Under the pieces are notes generated by a model. That model saw only the letters and a program-made list of their open reading frames with translations. It was not told the DNA's origin and made no database searches. From Ostreococcus lucimarinus (Eukaryota), in NCBI GenBank assembly GCA_000092065.1, contig CP000583.1: a DNA stretch of 64,000 bases; one strand, given 5' to 3'. Made by a program: the position numbers and the translations under genes. Position 1 is the stretch's first letter. The number at the start of each line of letters is the position of its first letter. Of this stretch, positions 3,001 to 62,410 are shown piece by piece.

Positions 3001-3512
3001 AAGCTCACCGTTACGCTAGAATTCACCGCGTTCAACGAACCCGAGCGTTTGTGCATCATCACCTGTTCCACGTCAATATCCGCCATGATATCGTCGTCGT
3101 CGTCGTCAAACATCAACTCGTCCGCCGTCGAGTTTGCCACGGAAATCGGCGCCGATTTCTCCCCCACATTCCCCTTCCCCGTCTCAACGTTCGCTCGAGC
3201 TGGAACAAGTACACGTTCTCGAATCGTCTCGTTCCCGGATTTCCCATCTCGAACGCTCGATCGACGCGTTCCCGGATCTGGAAGGTTCAAACGCGCGTAC
3301 GGCGTTTTCAAAAAATCAATCACGCTCTGCAATCCTCGATCGTTCAGCGTCGCCGGCGCGAACGCCCCGTCGTCCACGCGCATCCACACTCGCGCATCGC
3401 TCGACGTCGTGTCGTTCAGAGGCGCGGCGAGCGGGTTTTGTCCATCGAGCGAGTACGCGAATCCCTCGCGCGTCGTCGACGCCTCGGCCGTTCGACCGGC
3501 GTCGACGCGCAT
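45..3512 (-). CDS. ATP-dependent DNA helicase, RecQ family (BLM/Sgs1-like), with about 400 aa N-terminal extension containing an acidic D-run
   Basis: ORF 1155 aa. Walker A 'LMPTGGGKSLCYQLPAV', DEAH box 'VLDEAHCISAWGHDFR', helicase-C 'YHAGL', 'ATVAFGMGINKPNVRFVFHH'. RecQ-C zinc cluster 'CRR..C..CDSC'. C-terminal HRDC-like tail. Confidence 0.9.
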   Translation of the reverse strand: MRVDAGRTAEASTTREGFAYSLDGQNPLAAPLNDTTSSDARVWMRVDDGAFAPATLNDRGLQSVIDFLKTPYARLNLPDPGTRRSSVRDGKSGNETIRERVLVPARANVETGKGNVGEKSAPISVANSTADELMFDDDDDDIMADIDVEQVMMHKRSGSLNAVNSSVTVSLQMAPIPARQAMTPAPMSAPRARVLEQSRAPPSGPSISCQAPPLNGSGADWRCEHGVPLHACSHRASHIEQLRPVLANIVFQLEDDDVALKNSDRKVLVYQRMEAETIIRVCEDGSRNSFHPSAPMMSHSMPVDGSRMIEAPRHQVPPQYGAPSTSAWTAPPAGDDPNDFPGWNDDLPIGDDVVIPMNGIGAVNVGSNVVVNDCQMKGGDAKDWGHTNFQWSKLCEQTLRNTFNAKSFRSLQLLAVNATMAARDCLVLMPTGGGKSLCYQLPAVVKPGITVVISPLISLIQDQLHHLSEMGIPATVLSAAKDSDNTIYDDLRSPTPELRLLYVTPEKVVRSGKLKTALQRLYERGMLNRFVLDEAHCISAWGHDFRKDYTELRGLKHLFPTTPIMCLTATATRRVQDDIVRQLNLPKCLRFFDTFNRTNLTYEVHPKLKGKQMVNEIKNLIVSRKLMRNNRVQCGIIYCFSQADCEKIATELNKIDRSVGDRERFPKRLRAVPYHAGLADNVRKKHQEMWQRDEVNIICATVAFGMGINKPNVRFVFHHSMPKSLEAYHQESGRAGRDGDHGLCILFYSWGDASKARSMLIDSARRERAQPAVLQNNLESLNTMVSYCENLADCRRTQLMAHFDERFERSHCRGMCDSCHAIANGVKFEQTDITEYARGIISIVKSTPEGIGIGLLVDVFRGSSAKTVTQKQYNRLPGYGSGKGLDKSESERIARAMVLRGFLSEKTVRSEGAGPFATTVTTIHYERHRCEPIQQGRERFSMAFTKRRASAGKKVPVTTTVIIGTQPSTQPGTQSDVDGFLADMLNPNALEDNQKEQDMRNAVFAALTSWRKRMAHARELKTGKPVSLDVAFPPNLLQLLQKVRPRTADDMKKFIESGVDKANERTAIKKNNAEVLAVIKQAVECMEKGIPNPYVEDDNREEDEIEEDLDVYVNELPRMSQRRSSQQPAHSELLNAVDPSPAWKKARRDSDVDVT

Positions 3513-3780
3513 GGCGTTTCGTCCCGCGCTCGCGCGGCGACGCGCGACCGCGCGCGCGGACGATGGAAAGCTTTCGCGCTCACTCGCGCTTCATCGCCGA
3601 TCGATCGCGCGCGCGATCGGTGGTGCGACGCACTGTGACGTCTCGGCGCGGGGTGCCTCGATTGTTTTCGCGTCCGCTTTTGTGTGAACTACAAGTCTGC
3701 GAGAGTCTACGCCTCGCGCGATGTCGAGGAACGAGGATTGAAAAAAGTGGATCGTGAACCGCGGGACGGAGTCGTCGTCG

Positions 3781-4083
3781 TTAGCCTCGGTCGACGGACC
3801 CGACGACGAGATTTTCGGGGCGCTCTTTCTTCACTCTCGGGTGCGCGGACGCCACGAGGTCGCACTCGCCGCGCTGCGTGTGAATGTCGATGGTGCACCA
3901 GCCTTTACCGGCGACGCCGTACATCTTGAAGGCTGAACCGAGACCATTCGGGGGATTGGCCAACATCTTTTCGGTATTTTTCGCCTTCTCCTCGGGCGAC
4001 CACGATGTCGGATCGCCCTTGAGAATGCAGTTGTGAGCGCACGATCCAAAGACGTAGTCGATGTAACCGGGTTCTTTCGTCAA
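3781..4083 (-). CDS. hypothetical small Cys-containing protein (100 aa)
   Basis: Intact ORF 'MTKEPGYIDYVFGSCAHNCILKGDPTSW...WCTIDIHTQRGEC' with paired Cys. No family recognised. Confidence 0.3.
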   Translation of the reverse strand: MTKEPGYIDYVFGSCAHNCILKGDPTSWSPEEKAKNTEKMLANPPNGLGSAFKMYGVAGKGWCTIDIHTQRGECDLVASAHPRVKKERPENLVVGSVDRG

Positions 4084-4124
4084 ACAAAAAAAAGGGTGTC
4101 GCCTGGTCGTCCGAGTTCATTCAG

Positions 4125-5143
4125 TTACAATACGACGGCGGCGGCGGCGCGGTCAAAGTCTCGCTCCAAAGACGCGATTTTCGTCAAAGCTTCGTTCGCC
4201 ACTCCGGCCTGCTTCATGGCGTTCACGAACCTGGCCGAGGACTTGCCGAGGTGCAGCGCGCACGCGGCTAAATTCGCGAGCGTCTCGCCATCCTTCGGAT
4301 CGATGGCCACGGCTTCTAGTAAATCACGCTCGGCGTCTTCGTAACTATTCATCATCATCGAACACACCGCTGAACCATTATACAGCTTCGGCGTCCACTT
4401 GTACTTATCGCCGAGCTCTTGGTAAATGTACGAGGCGTCTTGAATCTTCTTCCCGCCGCTCGCGCAGTTCGCCCACGCGCACGCGAGCTGCGCGATGGTC
4501 GAATCGTCATCGATCTGTTGCATCATCTTCGCTTGCTTTTCCGCCAACTCCGCGCGATCCATCTTACACAGCAAGTTCACCATCATCGCGTTCAACTCCA
4601 GCGACGATCCTCCGTGACACAGCCTCATCGCCTCGACGTAATTCCCCTCTCGCGCGAGCAGCGTCGCCCCGACGAGTCGCGTCGTCGCGTCCCCAGACGC
4701 GTGTTCGTCCGCCAGCATCTCACCGATCGCCTCCATCGCGCTCTGTCTCGCCTTTTCGTCCTCGTTCGTCTCGTACAGCGCCAGCAATTTCACCGCTCGC
4801 AGCGCCGCCGGCGCGTCCTCCGCCGTCTCGCGCGCGACGATCTGTTCGTTCACCCATCGGGCGCCGTCTCGTCAGTCCTTCGTCGTCCCGGGCGCTCGCG
4901 CGCGCGATCGGCGCTCGATCGGCGCGTTCGTTTCTCCGTCCGGTCCCTTCGCGGCGTTTCGCGCGCGTCGCGTCGTCGTCGCACCTCGCCCTCGCCCATG
5001 GCGACGCGCGATCGCGCGACGAACGCGTCGCGCCTGACGGCGTCGACGCCGTCCGCGTCCGCGCACGCCCTCGCGGCGTCGACGCACTCGGCGTAGGCGC
5101 CGATGTGGAAGTAGTTCTCGCAGTGAAACAGCGCCTCGGACAT
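4125..5143 (-). CDS. COPE: coatomer subunit epsilon (epsilon-COP), 2 exons: about 5143..4985 and 4840..4125; GC-rich 144-nt intron 4984..4841
   Basis: Exon 1 'MSEALFHCENYFHIGAYAECVDAARA' matches the epsilon-COP N-terminus (human '[22 protein letters not shown]'). Exon 2 matches through the C-terminus ('IQDASYIYQELGDKY...NGSAVCSM', 'ETLANLAACALHLGK...', 'ERDFDR'). Donor GTGCGA, acceptor ACAG, phase 0. Confidence 0.8.
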
Positions 5144-5227
5144 GGCGCGGGCGCGCGCGCGGCGAAGTGCGCGGCGACCGAGGTGGCGAGGGCGTCGCAG
5201 CGCGACGCGCGCGCGAATCGCGTCGCG

Positions 5228-6175
5228 ATGCGCGCGCGCGCGCGCGACGCGAGCGACGCGAGCGACGAGGACGACGCGTCGACGTCGGACGCGCCGCGCG
5301 CGCGCGCGAGCGGACGCCGCGCGCTGGATTACGTGCGATTCGACGACGGGAACGCGCACGGAAGGGCGTTCGAGCGGTCGGCGCTGCGACGAACGATGGC
5401 GCGCGATCCGGCGTTCGATTCCATGGCGAGGCACCGGAAGGTGAAGAAGGAAATCACGGAGGCGCACGGGGCGCTCGCGCAGGTGCGGCGCGCGCTTCGG
5501 GCGGGGGGCGGGGGGGGGGAAGACGGCGGCGGCGACGGCGACGGCTTGGTTTTGGTCGAGCTGTGCTCGGGACGGGGATTCGTGTCGCTCGTGCTCGCGG
5601 ATGCGTTTCCGAAGGCGCGAATATACATGATAGATCGCGATACGACCATGGATGTGAGTCACGTCGAGACGTACGGGGGGGCGCGCATGTCGTTTCACGC
5701 GCTCGATTTACACTCGACGGCGTGCGAGGAGTTCGTCCGAGGCGTCGCGGACGACGCCGAGACGCGCGGACAGACCGTGGTTTTGGTCGGCGTGCATTTG
5801 TGTGGCACGTTATCGCATCGCGCGATCGAGCTATACGAGCGAATAGAACGCGCGGTGGCGATCGTGGTCGCCCCGTGCTGCTTGCCGCAGCGGCGACGGC
5901 ACGACGTGTTCGGTTTTCACTGCAAGGACATCGCTCGATCGATCGGTAACGGCGTCACCCCGTTCCAGTGTTGGTGCACGCAGCTTTATTTTCGATTACC
6001 GTTGACTTCGAAGCGAAACATGACCATCGATCACGACGTGCTTTCGACGCAGAACACGTTTCTCGTCGCGCGGCGTCCCCTCGATTCGGCGCTCGACGCG
6101 CTGTCCATCTCGACGCCTTTGTCGCCCTCCATCGTCCCCGGTCGTTCGTGCGCCAAATGGCGATTAGTAAAGTAA
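5228..6175 (+). CDS. SAM-dependent methyltransferase, Methyltransf_32 family (METTL25/RRNAD1-like)
   Basis: 'LVLVELCSGRGFVSLVL' (motif I), 'IYMIDRD', 'VVLVGVHLCGTLSHRAIELY', 'IVVAPCC'. Start uncertain. The first 40 codons of the track ORF (5105) are antisense to COPE exon 1, so M42 (5228) or a later Met is more likely. Confidence 0.6.
   Translation: MRARARDASDASDEDDASTSDAPRARASGRRALDYVRFDDGNAHGRAFERSALRRTMARDPAFDSMARHRKVKKEITEAHGALAQVRRALRAGGGGGEDGGGDGDGLVLVELCSGRGFVSLVLADAFPKARIYMIDRDTTMDVSHVETYGGARMSFHALDLHSTACEEFVRGVADDAETRGQTVVLVGVHLCGTLSHRAIELYERIERAVAIVVAPCCLPQRRRHDVFGFHCKDIARSIGNGVTPFQCWCTQLYFRLPLTSKRNMTIDHDVLSTQNTFLVARRPLDSALDALSISTPLSPSIVPGRSCAKWRLVK
5505..5520. repeat. G16 homopolymer inside the methyltransferase CDS (encodes a Gly run)
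   Basis: 'gggggggggggggggg' read directly from the sequence. Confidence 0.9.
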
Positions 6176-7916: not shown

Positions 7917-9188
7917 CTAAATGTCTAAGCACGTGGCCGTATCATGAAACCTGAGGAGCTCCTCTTTTCGTGCAGTGTCAGGCAAGTACGTTGCGAGACC
8001 CAAGAGGATCTCCATTTCTCCATCACACAACTCATACGCCCGCGCGTAGAAAGATTTTATCGGGATATGACCCTCTTGAAAGTCCCTCGCCGCGGTACGA
8101 AGCTCCATGTAAGCCGTTTCGCCAATGCGGTGCATCGCCTCTAATGCCAGCTTTGCGCTCGTCTCCGGAGCTTTACCTCGCGTCGGCTGTGAATCACGCT
8201 TTGCACTCCCTCGCTGATTCGACTCTATTGTCGCTTGCTTTTCGAAGAACTGCCGTATGAGTTGAGAGACTTCACCGTTTCCGGTCACGAGTTCGTTATG
8301 AGGCTTCGTGATCTCGCACGACTTCTCAGACGTAGTTTCAGCATTTTCAGCATCATTTGTAGCCTCTCGTGTCGTTTCGGTGACTTTTCCACCGCCGTTG
8401 CGACTATTTATGCTTCGCCGACGCCCCCAGGCGATGATGGAAAATCGCGGGTCGTTGTTTGATTTTGCCTTTGGCACGCCGTGTTTGAACCTTTTATTCA
8501 CCTCAGACGTGAAGGCAAACACGTCACCGTTGTTCTGAGGAAACGTAAACGTATTTCCACTCGGTTCGTGCAAGAAAATCAATTCTCGCGATCCACCGAA
8601 CGAGGCTCCCATCGTGAAATCTTCGCGTTGCGCTCGACCGCCGTACGCGTGCGAGTCGTGATGAAACGGTTTCCAGTCCGTCCCGTCTCGATAAAAATTC
8701 ATTCTCGTCGCGTACACTTCGACGTCGAAATAATCCGCCATCGCATCGACGACTCTCTGAAACGTTTCCGAAAAATCTGGGTTCTCGTGTTTCAGATGCT
8801 TCGACCAGTTCACCATGCCGCCGAGCTCCGCCGCGCGCTCCATCTCCCGCGCCAAATTCGCCAGCACGGAATAGTCGCGCGCCGAGGCGTGAAAATTCTG
8901 CAAGTAAATCGCGTTCCCGCTCAGCACGGACTCGAAATCGGCGAGCAGCCGCCCGTCCACCATCGCCGCTTCGCTTCGCAGCGCGCCTCGCGCGAACCGA
9001 AGCGCGTCGTTCTTCGCCCTCGTCCCCTCCCCGTCCTCGCCCTCGCGCTTCTTCACGAACCTCGGCGCGGACGCGGACGCCATGTTCGCGCCTTCGACCG
9101 CGTCCCGCGCGCGCCGTCGCCGCGTCGCGCTGCGCGGCGTCGCGCCCCGTCGCCGCGCGCGTCCCCGCCCGCGCCGAGCGCGCGACAT
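7917..9188 (-). CDS. 2OG-Fe(II) oxygenase, AlkB-like (putative nucleic-acid demethylase), with Arg-rich N-terminus and unrecognised C-terminal domain
   Basis: 'KPFHHDSH' (HxD), 'FTMGASFGGSRELIF', 'GDVFAFTSEVNKRFKHGVP' (distal His and Arg). Confidence 0.6.
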   Translation of the reverse strand: MSRARRGRGRARRRGATPRSATRRRRARDAVEGANMASASAPRFVKKREGEDGEGTRAKNDALRFARGALRSEAAMVDGRLLADFESVLSGNAIYLQNFHASARDYSVLANLAREMERAAELGGMVNWSKHLKHENPDFSETFQRVVDAMADYFDVEVYATRMNFYRDGTDWKPFHHDSHAYGGRAQREDFTMGASFGGSRELIFLHEPSGNTFTFPQNNGDVFAFTSEVNKRFKHGVPKAKSNNDPRFSIIAWGRRRSINSRNGGGKVTETTREATNDAENAETTSEKSCEITKPHNELVTGNGEVSQLIRQFFEKQATIESNQRGSAKRDSQPTRGKAPETSAKLALEAMHRIGETAYMELRTAARDFQEGHIPIKSFYARAYELCDGEMEILLGLATYLPDTARKEELLRFHDTATCLDI

Positions 9189-9202
9189 CGCGCCGCGTAC
9201 TT

Positions 9203-9310
9203 CATGTGAAAAAGGTCCATCAACAGCGTCACGTAGTTCATATGAAAAAGGTCCATCGACAGCGTCACGTAGTTCATATGAAAAAGGTCGATCAACCGCA
9301 ACACGCAGTT
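9203..9310. repeat. 36-bp tandem minisatellite x3 (third copy degenerate), AT-richer than flanks, in a divergent intergenic region
   Basis: 'catRtgaaaaaggtccatcRacagcgtcacgtagtt' repeated. Produces the artefact ORF 9053..9304 (MDLFHMNYVTL x3). Confidence 0.85.
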
Positions 9311-9315
9311 AATAA

Positions 9316-10443
9316 ATGAGGGTTTTCGCGCGGCGCCGGCCGACGGTGAAACTCGCGCCCCGCGCCCCCGTTTCGCCGGGCGCGTTCGAGCGATGGACGG
9401 CGACGCGCGGTGCCCCGCAGGCGCGGACGCGCGCGGCGCCGCGCGTCATGACGCTCGAGGACGCGATCGCGAGGTACGAAGCGACGAAAGCCGCGGCGAT
9501 CGCGACGGCGCGGGACGCCGCCGTCAGGGTGCGCGAGGAGGCGACGCGCGCGCAGCGGGTCGTGATGAACGCGCCGGCGCCCGCGCTGGCGGCGCGCTTC
9601 GCGCGAGCGGATGGGTTCGTCGATCGCGGCGCGTATCCGGTGTTCGTCGAACGCATCGCCGTCGGGTCGGTGATCTTCTCCCAGAGCTACGCCAGAGACG
9701 CGTGGTTGCACGTGAAGAACAATCACCTGCTCGTGGCGCTGTTCATGGCGCACCCGAAGCACCCGTTTTCGCGAACGGAGCGCGCGGTTTGTTTGTTTTG
9801 CTCGCTCATCATGGGATTCGGGTTGACGTGCGCGTTTGGTTTGATCGCGGACGAACCGGATAAAACGGTGGTGAGCGTGATCGTGGGAGGGTTCATTCAG
9901 GGGGTGTACGACGCGTTGTTGAGAATGTTCGCCGAATGCATCTGCATTCAGTCGTGCCCGCGTTGCGTGGTCAACTGTTTCGAGACGTGCGGGCGGATCG
10001 GGATGGTGCTGCAGTTCCTGCTCGGAATCTTGGTGCTCTGTATCGGTTTCTTAGCGTTCGTCACGTCGGAGAGCCTGAGAGCGCTGGGAGGGGTGACTTG
10101 GCGTTTCGCGATGTCGAAAGCGTCGTCGTGGGTCGTGGCGTCGATGATCTTTGTGCTCCTGGGACATCACCTAGCGCGAAGAAATCAGATGCGGCCGGCG
10201 GCGTCGAGGCACACATTCAGCGAAAAAGAGGCGCACGAGCGCTGGAACACGCCTCAAGAGCCGTGGTGCTGCTCGTGCTGTCTTCCGTCTCGCGCTCCGT
10301 CTTACTTTTGGAATTATTACATCGGCGAAGACGTCTCGTTTGAAGACTTGCCCATGAAACCGCCAAAGTACGCCGTCAAAAATTTTGGTTGCGTGTGCGG
10401 CCAAGACGAAGACGACGAGGACGGCGTCCCCGCACAGCTTTAG
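9316..10443 (+). CDS. hypothetical multi-pass membrane protein with Cys-rich segments
   Basis: Hydrophobic helices ('LVALFMAHP', 'CLFCSLIMGFGLTCAFGLI', 'VLQFLLGILVLCIGFLAFV', 'WVVASMIFVLLG'), 'CICIQSCPRCVVNCFETC', 'CCSCC'. Start may be M at about 9448. Confidence 0.4.
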   Translation: MRVFARRRPTVKLAPRAPVSPGAFERWTATRGAPQARTRAAPRVMTLEDAIARYEATKAAAIATARDAAVRVREEATRAQRVVMNAPAPALAARFARADGFVDRGAYPVFVERIAVGSVIFSQSYARDAWLHVKNNHLLVALFMAHPKHPFSRTERAVCLFCSLIMGFGLTCAFGLIADEPDKTVVSVIVGGFIQGVYDALLRMFAECICIQSCPRCVVNCFETCGRIGMVLQFLLGILVLCIGFLAFVTSESLRALGGVTWRFAMSKASSWVVASMIFVLLGHHLARRNQMRPAASRHTFSEKEAHERWNTPQEPWCCSCCLPSRAPSYFWNYYIGEDVSFEDLPMKPPKYAVKNFGCVCGQDEDDEDGVPAQL

Positions 10444-12236: not shown

Positions 12237-12521
12237 CGACGCGCGCGCGAACGCTCCCGCGCGATCCTCTCACGAAAACCGCGTCGCGTCGAAGCGCGAT
12301 CGTTTTTGACGCGCAAGATGACGACGGCGCGGAAAAGCGTATCGCGCTTTTCGCGCGCCTCCAGATTCGCGCGGGAAAAACCGTCGGTCGGTCTGTCCGA
12401 TTGTCCGATCGATCCCACATCGCGATTCCGCGCGTAAAACACTCGTGGAATTCGCGATTCGCGCGTTTTCGCTCGAAAATTCGCGCCGCGCGTCGACGCG
12501 CGACGTCCGCGGCGCGACGCG

Positions 12522-12595
12522 GTCGATCGATCGATCGATCGATCGGTCGATCGATCGATCGGTCGGTCGATCGGTCGGTCGGTCGAACGCATTTT
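12522..12595. repeat. (GATC/GGTC)n microsatellite in the 5' region between divergent genes
   Basis: 'ggtcgatcgatcgatcgatcggtcgatcgatcgatcggtcggtcgatcggtcggtcggtcg'. Confidence 0.9.
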
Positions 12596-12625
12596 TCGCG
12601 CGACGCGGCCCGCAGTCGCGCGCGC

Positions 12626-14272
12626 ATGTCCCGGTCGCGGCCGTCGACGCCGCGGGGTGCGTTGCACGCGTCGCCGGGCGCGATGGGGGCGTCGCCGAGC
12701 GAACGCCGGCATCGACACGCGCTGGCGGCGAAAGCGGCGCGACAGCGCAGGCGAAGGGCGCTTCGCCGATGCGCGCTCGTCGCGGTCGTCGCGGTCGTCG
12801 TCTTCTTGAAGACGTTTTATCCGGGCGACCAGACGGTGCGGAACGCGAGCGAGAGCTGGGCGCGGTTGATGTTTAGTAGGGATGGGTTCTCGTTCGGTCG
12901 AATGTACGAGCAGCGATTCGAGACGCAGGTGCGAATCGACGCGAAAGACGGCGCGATCGAGGAGACCAAGGAGGGGTACACGGTGCAAGGGAAGATTCCC
13001 GACAGGCCAAAGTTTACGACCAAGTTGAAGACCAGTGATATGCTCAAGGATGAATACAATCGCGCGGGCCGACAGAAGAAGTGCTATTTCTACGTCGAGC
13101 TCGAGGAACCGGTGTTGGTGTTGCACGACGATGGAGATGAGTTGCGGCATCACTTGGAGCTCGACGCGCACGACTTGGAATTTGAGCAGTTCAAGTGCAC
13201 GTACTTTCACGGCGTGCAGAGGCCCGTCAACGGAGGTTCGATCGAGAGTGGAAAGTGGGAAATCAAAGACGAGCGCGAATCTGGGGGGAAGGTCGCCATC
13301 ATGAGCTCGGCGACGACGTTAACGATGCTATCAGCGTACCATCGAACGCTCGTAAATCATCAAGCGTTCGCGAAACATCATGGATACGCTTCGATTCTCG
13401 CGCTGGTTTCTCGCGACACATTAGCGGGTAGATCTGGGAAATTCGCCAAACACATGGCGATGGGAGTGCAAACGTTGAAGAAAGATCACGACATGACGTG
13501 TCACGTCGACCTCGACGCCTGGTTCGCGAGTTGGGATCCGCTCAGCTATTACTCAAAGAACTGGCCTGGGGACAAAAACTTGTTCTTCGGCGACACCGGA
13601 CAAGTGTGGTTGAACTCGGGATTGATGTGCGCTCGATCGGTCGACTGGACGGTAGACTTTTTCGAGCGAGTGCTGAACGCGGTGCACGAAAAGGGAATGG
13701 ACGAGAATTCAAATCCCGTCAAGTTTGGTTTCAAGCGAGACCAACCGGCGATGTGGCATGTTCTCGCAACAGAGTGGGCCCAAAAGGACAACATCCCTTA
13801 TCTCGGCACCAAGTGTCCTCGATGGGACTCGTGTAATCCAGACTCGAATCCTATAGAGTGCTGGCATTGGTGTTTCTGGGACGCATTCCAGAGAAGACCT
13901 AAGGGATGGGACGGCTTGCACGACTTGAACAAGCTCTCAAACGTGTATCTCGACCCGCAAGAGAACGAGCCGAAGATGCATCGCATGTGTTTAGCGAGCT
14001 GTCAAAGCGTCTTGAGTCGAGCGAATATGGCGCTGTGCTCTACTATTACCGGCAGTGCAGGATGTTTGCCCAAGGATGTGGACAAGATGTCGCTTTGTGA
14101 CGGAAGGGGTTGCCTGCAGCAGCTCACGTCGAAAGGAGGCGCGTGGCTTAAGCACACTGGACATCAGCACTGGCGAGACGTTCTCCCGAGGTGTATCCCA
14201 CGCAACTCACAAGAGTCGGAGCGCGAAAAACGCTCGTATTTAAGCTTGTGCGATACTAAACGAACGGTGTAG
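12626..14272 (+). CDS. type-II membrane glycosyltransferase, GT34-like (GMA12/MNN10 galactosyl/xylosyl/mannosyl-transferase family)
   Basis: Basic cytosolic tail, TM 'LVAVVAVVVFL', then 'FAKHHGYASILAL', 'HVDLDAWFASWDP', 'WLNSGLMCARSVDWTVDFFERVLN', Cys-rich C-terminus. Start chosen downstream of the microsatellite. Confidence 0.5.
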   Translation: MSRSRPSTPRGALHASPGAMGASPSERRHRHALAAKAARQRRRRALRRCALVAVVAVVVFLKTFYPGDQTVRNASESWARLMFSRDGFSFGRMYEQRFETQVRIDAKDGAIEETKEGYTVQGKIPDRPKFTTKLKTSDMLKDEYNRAGRQKKCYFYVELEEPVLVLHDDGDELRHHLELDAHDLEFEQFKCTYFHGVQRPVNGGSIESGKWEIKDERESGGKVAIMSSATTLTMLSAYHRTLVNHQAFAKHHGYASILALVSRDTLAGRSGKFAKHMAMGVQTLKKDHDMTCHVDLDAWFASWDPLSYYSKNWPGDKNLFFGDTGQVWLNSGLMCARSVDWTVDFFERVLNAVHEKGMDENSNPVKFGFKRDQPAMWHVLATEWAQKDNIPYLGTKCPRWDSCNPDSNPIECWHWCFWDAFQRRPKGWDGLHDLNKLSNVYLDPQENEPKMHRMCLASCQSVLSRANMALCSTITGSAGCLPKDVDKMSLCDGRGCLQQLTSKGGAWLKHTGHQHWRDVLPRCIPRNSQESEREKRSYLSLCDTKRTV

Positions 14273-50737: not shown

Positions 50738-51712
50738 ATGGTGGAAGTTATGGGTACTTCGGACGAAGTGTTCGTTCGGAAACTGCGTTCGTTCGCGTCG
50801 CGAACGCACCTCGAACTTCACATCGACGCGGCGATGCGAGGCGAAAACGCGGAGGAGGATTACATCGACGTCTACGCATCGTCTCGCGCCAGACGAGTCG
50901 CACGCCACGCGAAAGCGGCGTCGACGACGCTCGAGAGTCAACGACGCGAAAGGCATTTGCTCCTCGAGGCGGTGACGCAGCAAAAAGAGCTGTTGGATGT
51001 GGAACAGAAACGCGCGGACGACGCGGAGGATGAGCTGGAGAAAGTCACCGCCCAGGCGGACGCGTTGTCGAAGAAATTGGACGATTTGATGTCGACGTTC
51101 ATGTCGAGGAAACTGTTGGAGAGAACGTGCGAGACGCCGACGCCGTCGTCCTCCGTTGCGGCGACCTCGACACTGCAGCTTGAAAACGAGCGCTTGAAAA
51201 GAGAAATGTACGACATGGAGAAACGCCACGCGGCGGAAATTGCTGATCTTCGCGCTGATCTTCGTGCTGATAAGCCGAATGCGCTCACGGCGGAGGAACG
51301 AAGGCGATTGTTGACGGAAATCGCCGAGGCGCGGAAAGAGATTGCAGTCGCGAAAGAAGCGCGCGCGAAGGCGCTTTCGGAAGCCATCGACCTACGTACG
51401 AAATTAGAATCTTTAGGAGCGGCGGCGAGTGTGAACGGTGTGAGTGGCGCGAACAATGCTTTCACACCGGCGGCGAGTGTGAACGGTGTGAGTGGCGCGA
51501 ACAATGCTTCCACACCGCCTAAAACCCCCGAGTGGGCAAACATAGACTGGGACGCGGCGCACGCAGAGATGGATTCCATCAAGGCGGAGAAACAGCGCAT
51601 CACGCCAAAGTTAGATAGTGGGAAACTACCCTCATTAGAAGAAGAAATAGATTGGGAAGCCGCCTACTCGGATATCGACGCGACGCGTGCGCGACGGAAA
51701 ATATTATCATAA
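50738..51712 (+). CDS. hypothetical coiled-coil protein with internal 48-bp direct repeat
   Basis: 'AASVNGVSGANNA[F/S]TP' encoded twice by near-identical 48-bp units (about 51425..51520). Confidence 0.4.
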   Translation: MVEVMGTSDEVFVRKLRSFASRTHLELHIDAAMRGENAEEDYIDVYASSRARRVARHAKAASTTLESQRRERHLLLEAVTQQKELLDVEQKRADDAEDELEKVTAQADALSKKLDDLMSTFMSRKLLERTCETPTPSSSVAATSTLQLENERLKREMYDMEKRHAAEIADLRADLRADKPNALTAEERRRLLTEIAEARKEIAVAKEARAKALSEAIDLRTKLESLGAAASVNGVSGANNAFTPAASVNGVSGANNASTPPKTPEWANIDWDAAHAEMDSIKAEKQRITPKLDSGKLPSLEEEIDWEAAYSDIDATRARRKILS

Positions 51713-55103: not shown

Positions 55104-58100
55104 TCATTTCCAAGTGTTTGGAAATTGTTGCGTTCGCGATGATGATATTCTCGTGAATCGGTGCTGCGTTAAGTCTCTGTTCGAATCGAAACAATCAAGC
55201 GTCGAGTTTCTTCGCCCACGCTCGGGAGGCGCGGGCATTCGGTAAGACTCGAGCATTTGATTGAATTCCTCAAGTGACGGTTCAGGTTGCTGCCGATGCT
55301 TCTCCAGAATCATGTTTGCGCTCGTCGAGGGTCCGTCGCTCGTCCGGGTCGGTTGCCAGAGTCGACCACCGCCGACAGCGCCAACATTGACAGGGGGCGC
55401 TCTTCGTGGTGACGCCGCTGGCGGTGATCGTAAGAGTGATCGCGGCGCCGACGTGGGAGACGTCTTGAAGTCCACGATTGGAGACGGCGTATCGATATTG
55501 CGCCGATGCAAAGATTGGTAATAATGCGGAGTCGCGGTGTTTGTCGGCGAATCTAAAGACAAAGATTCGAGCTCCCATTCGTCGAGTCGTGGTCGCTTCG
55601 AAATGGGCGAGTAAAACTCTGTGATTGGACGTTCCGTGAAGACTTGCCTTCGTTCTTGCGCAGCTCCGCCGCGGGGCGAATACGGCGGTGGTACATCCTT
55701 CGCCGGCTCTTCGGCACCGAAGACATCGAGTGGGCATCCAAGGTATCCATCGCGTTGCAAGTACGCCTTAGTATTCGAAGACAGATTACCAATGCGTTGG
55801 AGTTCATCGCAAACGAATTCATCCGCCAATAGAGCGCATGCGGAGATTGGATTGAGCAAAGGAAACATATCACACAACTCCATTTCTTCAATCGTTCGGC
55901 TCTCTGGCATTGGCGCAGAAAATTCTGAGAAACGACCATCTTGTGGCTGCAGAATCTCATGTAGCATCGACGCGGTTTCATCTTCGAGACTGTACCTGAG
56001 ATCGATGGAAAAATGCATGTGCGCGGCGTCTGAATGGATTCTTCGATCAAGCGTTTGCGCAATGTTTAAAAAGTCCAAATCACCCTCAAAGACCATCGTT
56101 CCTGACACAAACGAGTGCGCCATAGCAACCATCAAATCTTCCACCAACGAAAAAAGTTCAATTTGTGTCGGTAACCCTTCAACAAAATATTCTGGCACGA
56201 TCAATATCACTGCGTGAACTTGCTTGCCGACGGTGAAGCATGCGTCAACGTCGATCCCAAACTCTCGCAAAATCACGTCGCACCCGTCGTCGAGTAAGTT
56301 TCGCTCAACTTGACCAAATAGTTGCTCTCGTACCTTGATAATCTGTCTAGCGACGTTGAGCACGACGACGTGCCTCGGAACGCCATCGAATTGTACAGGA
56401 GGCGATACATTGGGATCTTCGTCGCGCACGACGCTTGCAGCATGTTGATTATTCTCCACGTACGGTGAATGACGCAACGCCGATGACGCAGGCTCTGGAT
56501 CTTCACTAGGTATAGAGACACCCCGTTTCATGGCGAGCACTCTCACAAAGCGATTTGCAGCGTGGCGCGAAGAACCAAGCAGATGAAGATCTTGAAGCGC
56601 ATTCGGCGACGGAGCGTAATAAACGCACGTCGAAAATAGCTCCAATGGAAATGCCTCATGAGCAATATGAGCCTCGAGAGCGATTAAAACTTGTACATTG
56701 GCCGTCGCGAGCGTAACCGCGCGAGCGAAATCCTCAACATCGTCTTCGTGTAGATTTTTAAACTCTTGCTTACCATCAAACTGAACTGCTTTTGTACCAA
56801 GCTTACTGATAAATCGCACGATGGAGAGTATACCCATCGCGTCGGGAAAGATAATGAGCATTTTCGATTGAGTCACTATGAGATCTGCGATGTACGCTCT
56901 GATCATTCTCAACTTGGGATGATCGTCAAACTCGCCGCGCTCCACGGCAACGTCGTTGTTTTCGACGAGGCTCTTGATGTCTGATAAATCTTGTTCATCC
57001 TTAGCGTAACTCCGCATCAAAATGTGCGCTTGATGAATTCCATACACATGAATTAAATTCGCCGCACTTTGACAGCACAGCAAGTTCTTCAAATGTCGAT
57101 TGATTGACGACGACTCATTCGCAAAGTGTTTCATTGCGTGCGCGAGCTCCGTAGATTCGCCGACTTGAAATCGGGGAATAGCTCGCTGAATATCCAGAGG
57201 TAAAATTTGCGATATGTAACCATAACGTTCCGCGAGCACTTTGATCACATATGTGTGTTCTGGATCAAGGTCAAGCTCGACGAAATCGATCAAGCACGCA
57301 TCCTTGTGTTTCTCAATCTTCGAAAGAGACAGCGATTCACTCAGCGTCGGTGGCTTTGGAATGGCTTCAGGCGCTGACTTTGGCGGTTCTTTCGTCGTTC
57401 GTGGTTCATCGTTCTTATCCATCATGTCGTCCCAAGTCCAATCGAGATCATCATTATCCATCTCGGCTTCGCGAAATAAAGTTGCCGCCGCGGTGTGCTC
57501 TTCTTCTTGAAATCGCGCCAACGTATCGAGGGCGTTTGGGATAGCAACTTTCCATTCGGATAACGCGGGCGCGCGGTCTTTTACTGCTTGCACACTCGCA
57601 ATCACGTCTCGCATTGCGCGATCCGTACGAACATTCGCATCTTCTTCTTCTTCTTCATCGATCTTCGGTACAATCATTGGTTTGGTGACGAATCGGTCGT
57701 CGACGTTTAGAAGCTTCTTTGTCATTTGCGCTTTGGCTTTGGACGAGAAATCATTCGACACCGCGAGGGTGTGCTCTTCCACAGGCGTCGTTAAAGTCTT
57801 CAACTTTGAGTCCAGAGCAATATCCATCGAATCTGGATCCACGTTCTCCATGAACCTTGGCGCGGTGTCTTCACAAATCAACGGAGCGATCTTCGTCGGC
57901 ACGGCTTGGAAAGGGTCTTTCGTCGACGGCTCGGGGATCCTTCCTTGAAACAGGAGATTCTTTAAGTACTCCTTGCATGAACTATCAATCTTTATCTCAT
58001 TTTCCCACGGCAGCACTTTGATCTTTTTCGCCATCGAGAGCAAGAACGTGATCGGAGACGCGAGAAGAGAAGGCTCGTCCATCGCAAACGAAGTCTCGAG

Positions 58101-58766
58101 TGGGCGCGGAAACAAACTCATGAAATCCTTCAACTTACCAACCTTCGTCGTCGACTCAAACTCTTTCGAACCTTCGCTCTCTCGCTCAACGTCGTATCTC
58201 TTCTGCAAGTCATTCTCAACGCAATCCAGCGCCTCCAGGGCGTCTTCGTTCAATCGAAACAAACAGCTCTCCGAATTTGTCGAGAAACTCGCCTCGCGAA
58301 TCGCTCTTCGCAGCGCTCTTCGCGTCTCGTCTTCATCGACGATCACGGGCGTCTCCATCCTCTCCATCCACCGCGAATCCATCGCTACTACCAATGACTT
58401 ATCGATGCCACCGCGCTTCTTCCCATGATCGACCGATATCTTCACCGGACGCGAAGCCACCGCGCCGAACGCCATCGCTCTCTCGTCTCTCGTCTCGCGA
58501 CCCGTCTCCACCCAATCCATCGTCTCCACGCACTTCTCCACCGGCACGGCGGCGATGATGTCCATCGCCGTCAGCGACGCGCACCGCACTTTCGTCCTCC
58601 CCCCCCCCGTGGCGACGTCATCGAGCGTCACCGACCCACCGCTCGTCTCCGACGTCGCCTCGTTCTCGTCCTCCCCCGCCGTCGTCGCGTCGCCTTCGAT
58701 CGCCCTCGCCTTCGCCTCCCACTTCCCACCCCCGTCCTCGCTCGGTTTCGCCCCGATGTGCGTCAT
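55104..58766 (-). CDS. large uncharacterised protein (about 1220 aa) with acidic Gly/Thr-rich N-terminus; possible degenerate helicase-C-like segment
   Basis: Continuous ORF with no Walker A/B. 'KMLIIFPDAMGILSIVRFISKLGTKAVQFDGK' is reminiscent of the SF2 helicase-C motif IV-V context. Track ORF's first 100 codons are microsatellite read-through; M102 (58766) or M87 (58811) is a likelier start. Confidence 0.45.
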   Translation of the reverse strand: MTHIGAKPSEDGGGKWEAKARAIEGDATTAGEDENEATSETSGGSVTLDDVATGGGRTKVRCASLTAMDIIAAVPVEKCVETMDWVETGRETRDERAMAFGAVASRPVKISVDHGKKRGGIDKSLVVAMDSRWMERMETPVIVDEDETRRALRRAIREASFSTNSESCLFRLNEDALEALDCVENDLQKRYDVERESEGSKEFESTTKVGKLKDFMSLFPRPLETSFAMDEPSLLASPITFLLSMAKKIKVLPWENEIKIDSSCKEYLKNLLFQGRIPEPSTKDPFQAVPTKIAPLICEDTAPRFMENVDPDSMDIALDSKLKTLTTPVEEHTLAVSNDFSSKAKAQMTKKLLNVDDRFVTKPMIVPKIDEEEEEDANVRTDRAMRDVIASVQAVKDRAPALSEWKVAIPNALDTLARFQEEEHTAAATLFREAEMDNDDLDWTWDDMMDKNDEPRTTKEPPKSAPEAIPKPPTLSESLSLSKIEKHKDACLIDFVELDLDPEHTYVIKVLAERYGYISQILPLDIQRAIPRFQVGESTELAHAMKHFANESSSINRHLKNLLCCQSAANLIHVYGIHQAHILMRSYAKDEQDLSDIKSLVENNDVAVERGEFDDHPKLRMIRAYIADLIVTQSKMLIIFPDAMGILSIVRFISKLGTKAVQFDGKQEFKNLHEDDVEDFARAVTLATANVQVLIALEAHIAHEAFPLELFSTCVYYAPSPNALQDLHLLGSSRHAANRFVRVLAMKRGVSIPSEDPEPASSALRHSPYVENNQHAASVVRDEDPNVSPPVQFDGVPRHVVVLNVARQIIKVREQLFGQVERNLLDDGCDVILREFGIDVDACFTVGKQVHAVILIVPEYFVEGLPTQIELFSLVEDLMVAMAHSFVSGTMVFEGDLDFLNIAQTLDRRIHSDAAHMHFSIDLRYSLEDETASMLHEILQPQDGRFSEFSAPMPESRTIEEMELCDMFPLLNPISACALLADEFVCDELQRIGNLSSNTKAYLQRDGYLGCPLDVFGAEEPAKDVPPPYSPRGGAAQERRQVFTERPITEFYSPISKRPRLDEWELESLSLDSPTNTATPHYYQSLHRRNIDTPSPIVDFKTSPTSAPRSLLRSPPAASPRRAPPVNVGAVGGGRLWQPTRTSDGPSTSANMILEKHRQQPEPSLEEFNQMLESYRMPAPPERGRRNSTLDCFDSNRDLTQHRFTRISSSRTQQFPNTWK

Positions 58767-58889
58767 CGCGTCTCGTTTCAAATCATCCCTTCGCGTCGAC
58801 GCGTACCGCATCCTCGTCCGTCGCGCCGTCGTCGCGGTGTGGCCGTCCAGCCGTCGCCCGTCCGTCCGTCTCGTCCCGTCTCGGGACGC

Positions 58890-59062
58890 GAATCGCCGGA
58901 TCGGCGAATCGCCGGATCGCGCGATCGGCGGATCGGCGGATCGGCGATCGCGCGATCGATCGTCCGTCGATCGCGCGATCGCGTCGATCGATCGATCGTC
59001 GATCGACGTCCGTCGACGGACGTCGATCGTCGATCGTCCCGCCCGGCGCGTCGATCGTCCCG
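58890..59062. repeat. GATCG/GGATCG-based microsatellite cluster in a divergent promoter region
   Basis: 'gaatcgccggatcggcgaatcgccggatcgcgcgatcggcggatcggcggatcggcgatcgcgcgatcgatcg...'. Confidence 0.9.
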
Positions 59063-59070
59063 CCCGCACA

Positions 59071-61716
59071 ATGACGTCGTCCGCGTCGGCGATGTTTGCG
59101 CACGCGACGACGGGCGCGCGCGGCGCGTCGACGGTGCGCGCGCGCGCGAGGACGTCGGTGACGACGACGGGCGCGCGCGCGACGATCGCGCGCGGCGCCG
59201 GGGCGCGGCGAAGCGCGCGCGCGACGGCCGAGGACGGGCGCCGCGATGGAGGGTTTCGTCTCGGGACGGCGACGACGGACGGATGGGCGCGAGCGCGCGC
59301 GATGCGCGGCGAGGGACGAGAGGACAGAGCGGTGATGACGCGCGCGGTGGCGGACGCGGAGGCGGCGCGGGAGGACGACGATAAAAAGTCGCGCGCGAAG
59401 CTCGTGCGAGGGGCGGACGGGAAGTTTTACCGCGAGGGCTCGGAGGGCGGCGGTCGCGGCGGCCGCGGCGGTCGCGGCGGTCGCGGCGGTGGACGCGGTG
59501 GTGGACGCGAAGGTGGACGAGGTGGATTCGGGCGCGGTGCGCGCGGTGGTGCAGGCGGCCGCGGCGATGGGGGTCAACGAAACTTTAGAAACGCGGCCAA
59601 GCCGAGCGGCGGCGGTCGCGCGGGTCGCGGCGGCCGCGGTGGACGACAAGACTTTCGATTCCAAGACGGTCGCAAACCGGGACGCGGCGGTAGACCAAAG
59701 ATGAATATGAGTGGTGCGAGTGGTAGCGATCAAGTGAAACAGCGACGAGGAAGCAAAGCGGCAAAGAGCGCGCAGCGCAAAAAGGCGCTCGAGGAAAACA
59801 GAGCCGTGGCTGTGGAGATTCTCGAAGTTCCCACGGATGGCATGGCGATCGAAGATCTCACCGAACTTCTCGCCACGACGCAAGCGCAAATTATCAAAAC
59901 GCTTTTCATGAAGGGTATCGCGGTTCAAATGGGCCAGTTGCTCGATAAGGAAGCTGTGATTGCCGTGGCTGAGGATATGGAAGTGGAATGGATAGACGAG
60001 GCTGAACAGGGCGTCGCGACGGCGGCAAAGAAGGTGACGCAGTTCTTGAGCGAAGACGACTTCGACTACTTGGTACCGCGAGCACCCGTAGTTACCATCA
60101 TGGGTCACGTCGATCACGGTAAAACATCGCTGTTGGATTACATTCACAAGTCCAAGGTTGCCGCGGGCGAGTCCGGCGGCATCACGCAAGGCATCGGCGC
60201 GTACCAAGTCAGCACCATGGTTGGTGATGAAGAGAAGGATATTACCTTCCTCGACACTCCGGGTCACGAAGCGTTCAGTGCGATGCGTGCTCGTGGTGCG
60301 CGAGTGACGGATATTGCCATAATTATCGTCGCGGCCGACGACGGCGTTCGACCGCAAACGGAAGAGGCTGTATCTCACGCCCGAGCCGCCGACGTTCCGA
60401 TCATCGTCGCCGTCAATAAAATTGACAAAGAAGGCGCGAACGTCGACCGTGTGCGTGATGAACTATCGCGCATCGGTATCATCAGCGAAGAGTGGGGCGG
60501 GGACGTTCCGTTCCTGCCCATCAGCGCCAAGTCTGGCGAAGGTATCGACGAGTTGCTCGAAACTATTTCTCTCACCGCCGAGCTCGCCGAGCTCGTCGCG
60601 AATCCCGATCGCGAAGCTCAAGGTACGGTCATCGAGGCATTCCTCGACAAACAACGTGGTCCGATGGCGACTGTTCTCGTCCAAGCCGGCACTTTGCGCA
60701 TCGGCGATGCGATTCAAATTGGTGGCGCGTATGGCAAAGTGCGCGCAATGGACGACGCAGATGGCACCAAAGTCGAAGAGGCTGGACCATCTATGCCTAT
60801 TCAAATCATGGGCCTCAACGGCGTTCCAGCCGCGGGTGAAGAATTTACCGTCTACGCGTCCGATACCGCGGCTCGTGACAAGGCTGAGCAAGTCCAAAAT
60901 GAGATTCGCAACAACCGCTTGATTGAGGGCAACGTTGTTTCGCTGAGCAACTTGCCGGGCGATGAGGATGGATTACAAAAGATCAATCTCATCGTCAAAA
61001 CAGACGTTAGTGGTTCTTGCGAAGCAGTCAAGGCTGCTCTCAGTGCGTTGCCTCAAGACCGCGTCCAGCTTCGTTTCCTCATGGCCTCTGCAGGCGAAGT
61101 GAGCGAGAGCGACGTCGATTTGGCTTCTGCCTCCGAAGGGATCATCTTGGCTTTCAATACGCCTTGCAGCGACCGAATCGGCGAGATTGCGAAAAAGAGG
61201 AAGGTTGAAGTACGTACTTACGACGTTATCTACGATCTGGTCGATGAAGTTCGTGCGGCAATGGAAGGCATGTTGAGTTCGATCAAGGAAGAAATACCGT
61301 TTGGCAAGGCGACGTGTAAGGCTGTCTTTGGCGGCGGTAAGGCGAAGGTTGCCGGTTGCGAGGTGACTGACGGTTACTTCCAGTCCAAAAAGTACTTGAG
61401 AGTCACTAGAAGGGGCAAAGAAGTGTTCTTCGGTAAGGTCGGCTCACTTCGTCGCGTCAAGGATATCGTCAAGAAGGTTGAGGCTGGCTTAGAATGCGGT
61501 ATCGGCGCCGATCCCGAGTGGGACGGCTTCAAAGCGGGCGACGAACTGGAGTGCTTGGACTTGGTCGATAAGATTCAAACACTCGAAACTGCGAGTGAAA
61601 TTTTGGCAGAACGTGTTGAAGAATACCAAGCTGGTGAGGCCGAGCGTGAAGCCGCGCGAGAAAAGGCCAAGGAAGGTTACCAGCGACAACAACGACGGGC
61701 CGCTCCGTCAAAGTAG
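59071..61716 (+). CDS. infB: translation initiation factor IF-2, bacterial/organellar type, with presequence and RGG-repeat N-terminal region
   Basis: 'VVTIMGHVDHGKTSLLDYI', 'DTPGHEAFSAMRARGA', 'NKIDK', domains II-IV ('ATVLVQAGTLRIGD', C-terminal beta-barrel 'VFGGGKAKVAGCEVTDG'). Confidence 0.9.
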   Translation: MTSSASAMFAHATTGARGASTVRARARTSVTTTGARATIARGAGARRSARATAEDGRRDGGFRLGTATTDGWARARAMRGEGREDRAVMTRAVADAEAAREDDDKKSRAKLVRGADGKFYREGSEGGGRGGRGGRGGRGGGRGGGREGGRGGFGRGARGGAGGRGDGGQRNFRNAAKPSGGGRAGRGGRGGRQDFRFQDGRKPGRGGRPKMNMSGASGSDQVKQRRGSKAAKSAQRKKALEENRAVAVEILEVPTDGMAIEDLTELLATTQAQIIKTLFMKGIAVQMGQLLDKEAVIAVAEDMEVEWIDEAEQGVATAAKKVTQFLSEDDFDYLVPRAPVVTIMGHVDHGKTSLLDYIHKSKVAAGESGGITQGIGAYQVSTMVGDEEKDITFLDTPGHEAFSAMRARGARVTDIAIIIVAADDGVRPQTEEAVSHARAADVPIIVAVNKIDKEGANVDRVRDELSRIGIISEEWGGDVPFLPISAKSGEGIDELLETISLTAELAELVANPDREAQGTVIEAFLDKQRGPMATVLVQAGTLRIGDAIQIGGAYGKVRAMDDADGTKVEEAGPSMPIQIMGLNGVPAAGEEFTVYASDTAARDKAEQVQNEIRNNRLIEGNVVSLSNLPGDEDGLQKINLIVKTDVSGSCEAVKAALSALPQDRVQLRFLMASAGEVSESDVDLASASEGIILAFNTPCSDRIGEIAKKRKVEVRTYDVIYDLVDEVRAAMEGMLSSIKEEIPFGKATCKAVFGGGKAKVAGCEVTDGYFQSKKYLRVTRRGKEVFFGKVGSLRRVKDIVKKVEAGLECGIGADPEWDGFKAGDELECLDLVDKIQTLETASEILAERVEEYQAGEAEREAAREKAKEGYQRQQRRAAPSK

Positions 61717-61792: not shown

Positions 61793-62331
61793 TCACTCCC
61801 GCCCTGCTTCCTCCTCTCGCTCCCGCGCGCGACGTTTCTCCTCCGCCTTTTTCTTGCGCGCCGCGCCGAGTGCTCGTCTGTCCGCGTCGCTTCGATCCGG
61901 CGCATCGCCCAACTTCACGTTCAACGCGTTCGCGATCATTCTTCGGGCCACCGAAGCGTTCGTCTTCGGTCTCGCCCTCGGCGGTCGCAAATCAAACTCA
62001 GAAACGTCCCCCCTCAGCGTTTCGCTCGTCTCCTCCCACCGCGCGCACCTCGCGTCGCTCCCGAGCGTCCTCGGCGCGCCATCCTCGAGCAACTTTTTCG
62101 CCAGCGCCTCGCTCGCGAACACGCACACCGCGCTCGTCTTCGTTCCCCACGCGATCTTCACCGCGTTCGCGTCTTCGCTCTCGACGATCGCGCGCTCGAT
62201 CTCGCGCGTCTTCGTCGTCGGTCGCAGCCCGAGCAGGACGACGACGTGCGCGGTCGACGTCGTCGCCTTCGACGCGCTCGCGACGTCGAGCGTCCCGACG
62301 CGCGTCGCGAGGTCGTCGACCGCATCGCGCG

Positions 62332-62390
<59 letters not shown>

Positions 62391-62410
62391 GCGCGCGCGC
62401 GCGTCGTCAT
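61793..62410 (-). CDS. hypothetical protein with N-terminal (Gly-Asp)n repeat and Lys/Arg/Glu-rich C-terminus
   Basis: (GTCGCC)9 encodes the GD repeat. Possible RRM-like beta strands 'HVVVLLGL'/'SAVCVFASE' (weak). Confidence 0.35.
62338..62392. repeat. (GTCGCC)9 hexanucleotide microsatellite (coding)
   Basis: Read directly from the sequence. Confidence 0.9.

Follow-up and report, generated by a model that had tools for sequence, protein, structure and literature searches.

GATCG-type tandem repeats in divergent promoter regions of Ostreococcus lucimarinus

Two GATC-rich tandem-repeat tracts, each located between a pair of divergent gene starts, were analysed in a 64-kb stretch of Ostreococcus lucimarinus DNA, which as a whole is referred to as the window. 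They are probably hypervariable compound microsatellites made by slippage within CpG-island-like bidirectional promoters, where they would act as a nonspecific spacer with, at most, a length-dependent tuning effect. The tracts are tandemly organized, lie in promoter DNA, are polymorphic within the species and absent at the orthologous sites of sister species, and they are part of a general enrichment of repeats in divergent promoters. As such they belong to a known class, namely the variable promoter tandem repeats.

Structure of the IF-2 promoter tract

The window has a very compact eukaryotic layout with ~43 genes and few introns, a GC content of 55.8%, which equals the 56% published for O. 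mediterraneus (PMC5455958), and a CpG observed/expected ratio of 1.55. The first of its GATC-rich tracts lies next to the gene of translation initiation factor IF-2 (Table 1), where overlapping TRF arrays and GATCGTC-type units bear out the GATCG block given at 58890-59062 in the preliminary description. Three types of unit are present, namely (GGATCGSC/GATCGCGC)n with period 8, (GATC)n with period 4 and (GATCGTC)n with period 7. Between 58887 and 59006 the TRF arrays overlap each other with period 8 (GCGGATCG, about 8-14 copies), period 16/24 and period 4 (CGAT x 15.8), and the GATCGTC-type units run on beyond these arrays to 59066. This latter part harbors a 17-bp direct repeat, GTCGATCGTCCCGCCCG, found twice at 59029-59045 and 59050-59066.

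The divergent interval from the minus-strand ATG 58811 to the IF-2 ATG 59071 (58812-59070) comprises 259 bp and contains 17 GATC. About two thirds of this shared promoter is taken up by the tract, which ends 5 bp before the IF-2 ATG, so that its assignment to bidirectional promoter DNA holds. The left partner, a large gene, encodes a 1235-aa protein for which no Pfam family was matched. ATG 58811 is taken as its start because the start context ATGCGGTAC is kept in sister species, with GTACCGCAT conserved in contigs L005, L008 and L140. For the right partner, IF-2, the start at ATG 59071 is supported by recurrence of the exact protein on at least 24 marine metagenome contigs, Tara Oceans assemblies among them. 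The best of its named homologues is that of Micromonas pusilla at 70% and marine-metagenome proteins reach 85-91%. The gene labels IF-2, RecQ and COPE used before agree with Pfam.

Table 1. Positions of the repeat features and of the genes next to them in the 64-kb window.
Feature	Position	Strand	Evidence or remarks
Mini-cluster CGATCGATCGCGCGCGCGATCGG, 3 CGATCG	3598-3620	none	86-108 bp upstream of RecQ ATG (3512, minus strand)
11-bp unit GCGCGCGATCG x 2.5, 2 CGATCG	4900-4926	COPE on minus strand	TRF score 47
Gene flanking the 9196-9314 repeat, left	7917-9188	-	
Gene flanking the 9196-9314 repeat, right	9316-10443	+	
Small response-regulator receiver gene, 173 aa	11682-12203	-	weak PF00072 match; translation
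Tetranucleotide microsatellite (TCGA)n with TCGG variants (= GGTCG units)	12523-12586	none	TRF and sequence
Gene of unknown function, 548 aa	12626-14272	+	right partner of second divergent promoter
Large gene, 1235 aa from ATG 58811	55104-58811	-	left partner of IF-2 bidirectional promoter; codon score 279.9
Compound imperfect microsatellite	58887-59066	none	sequence, TRF, GATC count, same-species 8-bp unit indels
44-bp near-perfect palindrome (CGATCGTCGATCGACGTCCGTCG / CGACGGACGTCGATCGTCGATCG)	58993-59036	none	inverted repeat, 96% complementary; DNA fold
Chloroplast-type translation initiation factor IF-2, 881 aa	59071-61716	+	Pfam IF2_N, GTP_EFTU, EF-G_D2, IF-2

Structure of the second divergent tract

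The second tract, described before as a GATCG/GGTCG block at 12522-12595, is confirmed as an array of (TCGA)x16, which TRF equivalently reports as the 16-mer TCGATCGGTCGATCGA x4 at 93% matches. It is located in the divergent intergenic region between the minus-strand response-regulator gene and the plus-strand gene of the 548-aa protein; ATG 12626 follows it after 40 bp and the conserved ATG 12683 after 97 bp. The label of the left partner as response regulator is backed by a PF00072 match, but a weak one; the gene is called on contigs L011 and L012 as well. The right partner had been named a GT34 glycosyltransferase, a label not sustained by the Pfam search of the 548-aa protein, which gave no match. 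Homologues of this protein are almost entirely of marine-metagenome origin, and the best named one, at 40%, comes from a diatom (Attheya, EukProt).

In the JGI contig L019 of the same species (1570-1600), ~56 bp are missing just 3' of the tract, ATG 12626 included. Furthermore, the ATGGGGGC start at 12683 is conserved in the sister-species contig L015. Because of this deletion and this conservation, the true start of the 548-aa gene is probably ATG 12683.

Minor sites near RecQ and COPE

Two smaller sites had been listed along with the tracts. At the first of these (3590-3625) the position upstream of RecQ is correct and the arrangement is non-random, since three CGATCG within 25 bp are reached in 0/2000 local dinucleotide shuffles (5/500 family-wise), but the cluster is small and sits in a tandem (same-direction) interval rather than a divergent one. 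At the second site (4895-4925) a repeat of 2.5 copies of an 11-bp unit does exist and lies inside the intron between COPE exon 1 and exon 2, as read from the translations and from the Pfam Coatomer_E match of COPE, which begins at profile position 51, but it is marginal, with 26/2000 shuffles reaching it before multiple-testing correction.

Distribution of tandem repeats in the window

Region classes (divergent, tandem, convergent and coding) were taken from a curated gene map of the window. Closely spaced GATC in groups of at least four are found in two places only, the 58.9-kb and the 12.5-kb tract, which also account for all 250-bp bins with at least five GATC. The GATCG-type tract is present in 2/14 divergent regions, with one weak case among 13 tandem regions. 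The earlier statement that such tracts recur specifically in divergent promoters is correct where the two strong tracts and the independent contigs of alga-like composition (see below) are concerned, but does not extend beyond 2/14 of the divergent regions of the window. As stated before, the tracts are absent from coding cores: none is found in coding sequence, where GATC has an observed/expected ratio of 0.8, compared with 1.2 in intergenic DNA, tracts included. No GATC frequency bias beyond the tracts, as for a Dam-like system, was seen in the coding and intergenic DNA of the window.

With the tracts masked, CGATCG occurs 25 times in promoter-side DNA of this small window, where 13.6-15.5 are expected (1.6-1.8 times). 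This excess has a nominal p of 0.003 and ranks 13 of 2080 hexamers, and it is non-significant after correction. The E2F-like motif TTTSSCGC is not enriched (24 observed, 27.9 expected). No report of a CGATCG motif in Mamiellales was found in the literature searched.

The promoter bias of the tracts is real but general, the GATCG type being one form among the CG-rich tandem repeats that generally accumulate in divergent promoters. Repeats found by TRF, whatever their motif, account for 15.6% of the divergent intergenic DNA of the window and for 0% of tandem and convergent intergenic DNA; in genes they make up 9.4% of the initial 300 nt and 1.4% of the remainder. Repeats with non-triplet periods cover 10% of divergent intergenic DNA versus 0.1% of gene interiors; by this TRF coverage they are kept to noncoding DNA in the manner of microsatellites. 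Some tandem repeat is present in 8/14 divergent regions, with a CG-rich unit that differs from region to region, and the GATCG type accounts for 2 of these 8. A cis-regulatory element would be expected in a good part of the promoters of this kind, which is not what is observed for the GATCG type (2/14 divergent regions).

The intergenic composition of the window is strongly polarised, with CG-rich divergent gaps versus AT-rich convergent gaps. The 14 divergent regions have 65% GC and 20 CpG per 100 bp, convergent intergenic DNA at gene ends has 36% GC and 4.5 CpG per 100 bp, and coding sequence has 55% GC and 11.5 CpG per 100 bp. The divergent regions thereby show the local rise of GC and CpG at gene starts over the surroundings that defines CpG islands.

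Two further repeats of the window are recorded here. A 36-bp unit, CGTAGTTCATATGAAAAAGGTCCATCAACAGCGTCA x 3.3 with 87% identity, at 9196-9314 occupies nearly all of a 127-bp divergent gap. It is AT-richer than the other promoter repeats, has a CATATG palindrome in most copies and may represent a candidate binding-site array. A 48-bp unit x 2.0 with 98% identity at 51420-51517 is located within the coding region of gene 50738-51712.

Polymorphism within the species

At the 58.9-kb locus, the window was compared with four other metagenome contigs of the same species, giving five haplotypes, all from short-read assemblies. The promoter flanks are 100% identical in the five haplotypes; inside the tract, two indels of an 8-bp unit, a single 1-bp indel and several substitutions set the haplotypes apart. 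Over ~7.8 kb of alignment, 21 variable columns fall into the 181-bp tract versus ~12 SNP columns in the other ~7.5 kb. The sole other variability hotspot in this alignment is the microsatellite (CGTCGC)n at 62332-62390, a perfect repeat of 9.8 copies at the 5' end of the coding sequence of the minus-strand gene 61793-62410. The length of this repeat varies in frame by ~9-18 bp among contigs of the species.

In L012 the 12.5-kb tract is shorter by 52 bp, representing either a polymorphism or a collapse of the short-read assembly, and the order of its units differs in L019. Short-read contigs often stop at or inside tracts, as seen for L011 (end 3297) and L014, both inside the 12.5-kb tract, and for L038, L052 and L088.

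Both tracts consist of short units in head-to-tail arrangement (periods 4, 8 and 16 at 58887-59006; 4 and 16 at 12523-12586), and their unit number is polymorphic between stable flanks in the short-read assemblies compared, as is typical of microsatellites. Such variation within a species is the classic signature of slippage-prone repeats, though part of it may be assembly collapse.

Sister species and independent metagenome contigs

The orthologous IF-2 promoter was compared in three sister lineages. In the first (contigs L005-7) a GATC tract is absent and (GACTGAC)n, (CA)n and (GTC)n are present instead. In the second (L008 and L140) the promoter contains (CATT)n, itself polymorphic, plus only TCGATCGATCGATG. 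On the contig of the third (L141), which begins inside the intergenic region, the tract was not found in the covered part of the IF-2 promoter; a ~70-nt perfect palindrome (CGCATGTACTATATGAGACTCACATGGGTAGTAC...) at the start of this contig (1-70) was most likely created during assembly of the contig end. The second divergent promoter is without a tract in the sister lineages L015 and L018. At orthologous sites of sister species the tracts are replaced by other repeats or by none, the rapid turnover known from microsatellites, and the conservation at orthologous promoters that marks a cis-regulatory element is not seen. The conserved feature is a short repeat-prone spacer, rather than the sequence of the spacer.

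A scan of JGI metagenomes for GATCGNNN x4 / GATCGNNNGATCGNNNGATCGNNNGATCG yielded at least 120 loci in soils, sediments and many organisms. GATC-type arrays are therefore not specific to this alga, given the range of environments and organisms in which they occur. The informative subset of the scan consists of contigs of alga-like composition (CpG observed/expected ~1.5 or more). Among these contigs, which were selected for having the tract, L097 and L102 carry it between divergent genes and L127 probably does so, and in L038, L052 and L088 it lies directly 5' of a gene at the contig end. These placements favour the positional claim of the preliminary description, with the reservation that the contigs were chosen for the tract and that about half of the total intergenic DNA belongs to divergent promoters.

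The divergent gap of L097 (5850-6210) shows a ~70-bp higher-order repeat with a (TCGA)n run in every copy, and that of L127 (4942-5105) is made up of ~14 copies of the 12-bp unit GATCGGATGGTT. Dispersed copies of TCGATCGA are numerous around the pure arrays of both contigs. Together with the higher-order repeats, these dispersed copies fit decaying older expansions; they could instead reflect a lineage-specific motif, for which they are the strongest hint.

Self-complementarity and read-through of the tracts

In line with the preliminary description, the tracts are rich in palindromes, can form hairpins and have a high density of CpG and GATC sites. The IF-2 tract harbors a 44-bp self-complementary stretch (Table 1), which is altered in 2/4 of the other haplotypes (CGACGGA to CGATCG- in L002 and L004), and the (TCGA)n array folds onto itself in an inverted-repeat search. 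Single-strand DNA folding of the tracts gives z = -2.5 and -3.0 relative to dinucleotide shuffles, with shuffled CG-rich sequence folding nearly equally well. Because the excess over the shuffles is modest, the cruciform potential is regarded as an intrinsic by-product and provides no evidence of function. Each repeat unit contains one GATC, and hence one ApT, plus 1-2 CpG, and the two tract-bearing intergenic regions reach 24-27 CpG per 100 bp.

The GATC-type tracts have zero stop codons in all six frames. ORF finders and gene callers therefore read through them, which gives false N-terminal extensions. Read-through spans are found in the window at 12401-14272, 55104-59069 and 58555-61716, in L127 at 2956-5238 and in P0163, and spurious tract-derived peptides of the types '...DRSIDRSIDRS...' and 'RSTIRSTIRSTI' are seen.

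Comparison with known repeat systems

In eukaryotes, promoters and 5'UTRs are hot spots of tandem repeats, and in yeast both expression and the positions of nucleosomes can shift when the repeat number changes (PMC3887541, citing Vinces et al. 2009). The mutation rate of intergenic DNA in Mamiellophyceae is 2-3 times that of coding DNA (PMC5455958), and promoter indel polymorphism has been documented in Bathycoccus (PMC11539686). The microsatellite reading fits both of the latter observations. The tracts resemble promoter and 5'UTR microsatellites of yeast and plants (5'UTR/UI200, PMC3887541) in their short units, their variation between individuals and their fast turnover between species, as well as in the exclusion of non-triplet periods from coding sequence and in a possible tuning of expression or nucleosomes. 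Contrary to typical yeast and plant repeats, which are AT-rich or of the CT/GA type, their motif is CG-rich and palindromic (GATCG, TCGA, GGATCGSC). Also unlike the usual promoter microsatellites, the tract takes most of a very short bidirectional promoter of 259 bp.

A second likeness is to CpG-island bidirectional promoters, inasmuch as DNA rich in GC and CpG is restricted to divergent gene starts and gene ends are AT-rich. This likeness is one of composition only, and the organism is a green picoalga whose relatives have Dnmt5-type gene-body/linker methylation, and not a vertebrate.

The cyanobacterial palindrome HIP1 (GCGATCGC) is found as dispersed single copies at high frequency throughout the genome, coding sequence included. 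It shares the CGATCG core with the tracts, and GCGATCGC octamers are present inside the 58.9-kb tract. In contrast to HIP1, CGATCG is here at expectation in the coding DNA of the window (observed/expected 1.0; GCGATC 0.9) and concentrated in two tandem arrays of a eukaryotic nuclear genome, and a HIP1-like dispersed palindrome was rejected on these ratios. With Dam-type GATC sites and eukaryotic ApT 6mA the tracts have in common that GATC holds an ApT and lies near gene starts; they differ from such systems in that there is no GATC-specific bias and in that the presence of the tract is sporadic and not conserved.

Origin and function of the tracts

The tracts are probably young arrays that would have grown by replication slippage, possibly aided by unequal exchange, out of short palindromes with a CG, for instance CGATCG or TCGA, as seeds. 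Two circumstances would favour their accumulation in divergent promoters: these are almost the only noncoding DNA that tolerates non-triplet repeats, and they are already CG-rich and of low complexity, so that seeds would be common. The self-complementarity of the units may in addition favour slipped hairpin intermediates. With regard to function, the tracts most likely represent a sequence-nonspecific spacer, i.e. low-complexity promoter DNA, and at most their length might tune the spacing or the accessibility of the two divergent genes. Slippage as the mechanism, neutrality or tuning as its consequence and the chromatin state of the promoters are what we infer from the patterns described above.

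Alternatively, the tracts could form a lineage-specific cis-regulatory array, in which CGATCG or TCGATCGA would act as a transcription factor site or core-promoter-like motif and copy number would tune the bidirectional output. Such an array would account for the filling of the promoter core by the tracts, for the non-random cluster of three CGATCG upstream of RecQ and for the short TCGATCGATCGATG that one sister species has kept at its orthologous IF-2 promoter. The excess of CGATCG in promoter-side DNA outside the tracts points in the same direction, but it fails multiple-testing correction; likewise, divergent placement recurs in the alga-like contigs L097, L102 and L127 along with extra dispersed copies, but these contigs were chosen for carrying the tract. 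Furthermore, 12/14 divergent promoters do without a tract, within the species the units vary freely in number and sequence, and no such motif is reported in the literature searched. To judge from the comparison of orthologous promoters, at which they are not retained, the tracts are not a conserved binding-site array, and a regulatory array of the lineage-specific kind is unlikely. The dedicated promoter or positioning element proposed in the preliminary description is not supported in view of the variation of unit number and sequence, the sister promoters without a tract, the restriction to 2/14 divergent promoters and the general accumulation of CG-rich tandem repeats in such promoters.

Somewhat more improbable still is the proposal that CGATCG/TCGATCGA arrays constitute a lineage-specific, fast-evolving promoter module of Mamiellophyceae, to which a factor would bind or which would carry 6mA/CpG methylation, and the copy number of which would tune short bidirectional promoters.

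An epigenetic signature is very unlikely. The tracts would in this case provide dense substrates for 6mA (GATC/ApT) or Dnmt5-type CpG methylation and thereby keep nucleosomes off the shared promoter or set their position there. Mamiellales do have CpG methylation and nucleosomes phased around TSSs, and for O. tauri 6mA calls have been reported, though without motif information (bioRxiv 10.1101/2025.04.21.649811). The same work cites methylation and MNase data of O. lucimarinus and M. pusilla (SRR847303-7). The content of the units, GATC with its ApT plus 1-2 CpG, and the CpG density of the tract-bearing regions would suit such a role as well. However, a Dam-like GATC bias is missing in coding as well as intergenic DNA, the tracts are not conserved in sister species, and an equal CpG density is found in other divergent promoters that are built from unrelated motifs. 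Since unrelated motifs reach the same density, GATC itself is not required.

That the tracts are artefacts, due to misassembly or to ligation at a Hi-C GATCGATC junction, or mobile remnants such as the end of a MITE, is scarcely credible. Contigs frequently end or are collapsed there, but tracts with the same flanks were obtained in many assemblies made independently by different projects (L001-L004, L011, L014 and L019). The two tracts are not a mobile element because they share no flanks, with BLASTN similarity confined to the repeat arrays and no flanking terminal inverted repeats seen. An RNA gene was likewise rejected, as no Rfam or tRNA match was obtained.

As hypervariable promoter microsatellites, the tracts carry little weight as a discovery in themselves: they are a further case of a known phenomenon, and functional ideas are not needed to explain them. 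In practice, they break or collapse short-read assemblies and cause false N-terminal extensions of genes. They belong to a broader pattern in which CpG-island-like, repeat-rich divergent promoters stand opposite to AT-rich convergent gene ends. Should the reading as a promoter module be true, the tracts would be a source of heritable expression variation in natural populations. The tracts are also good candidate population markers for this globally distributed picoalga.
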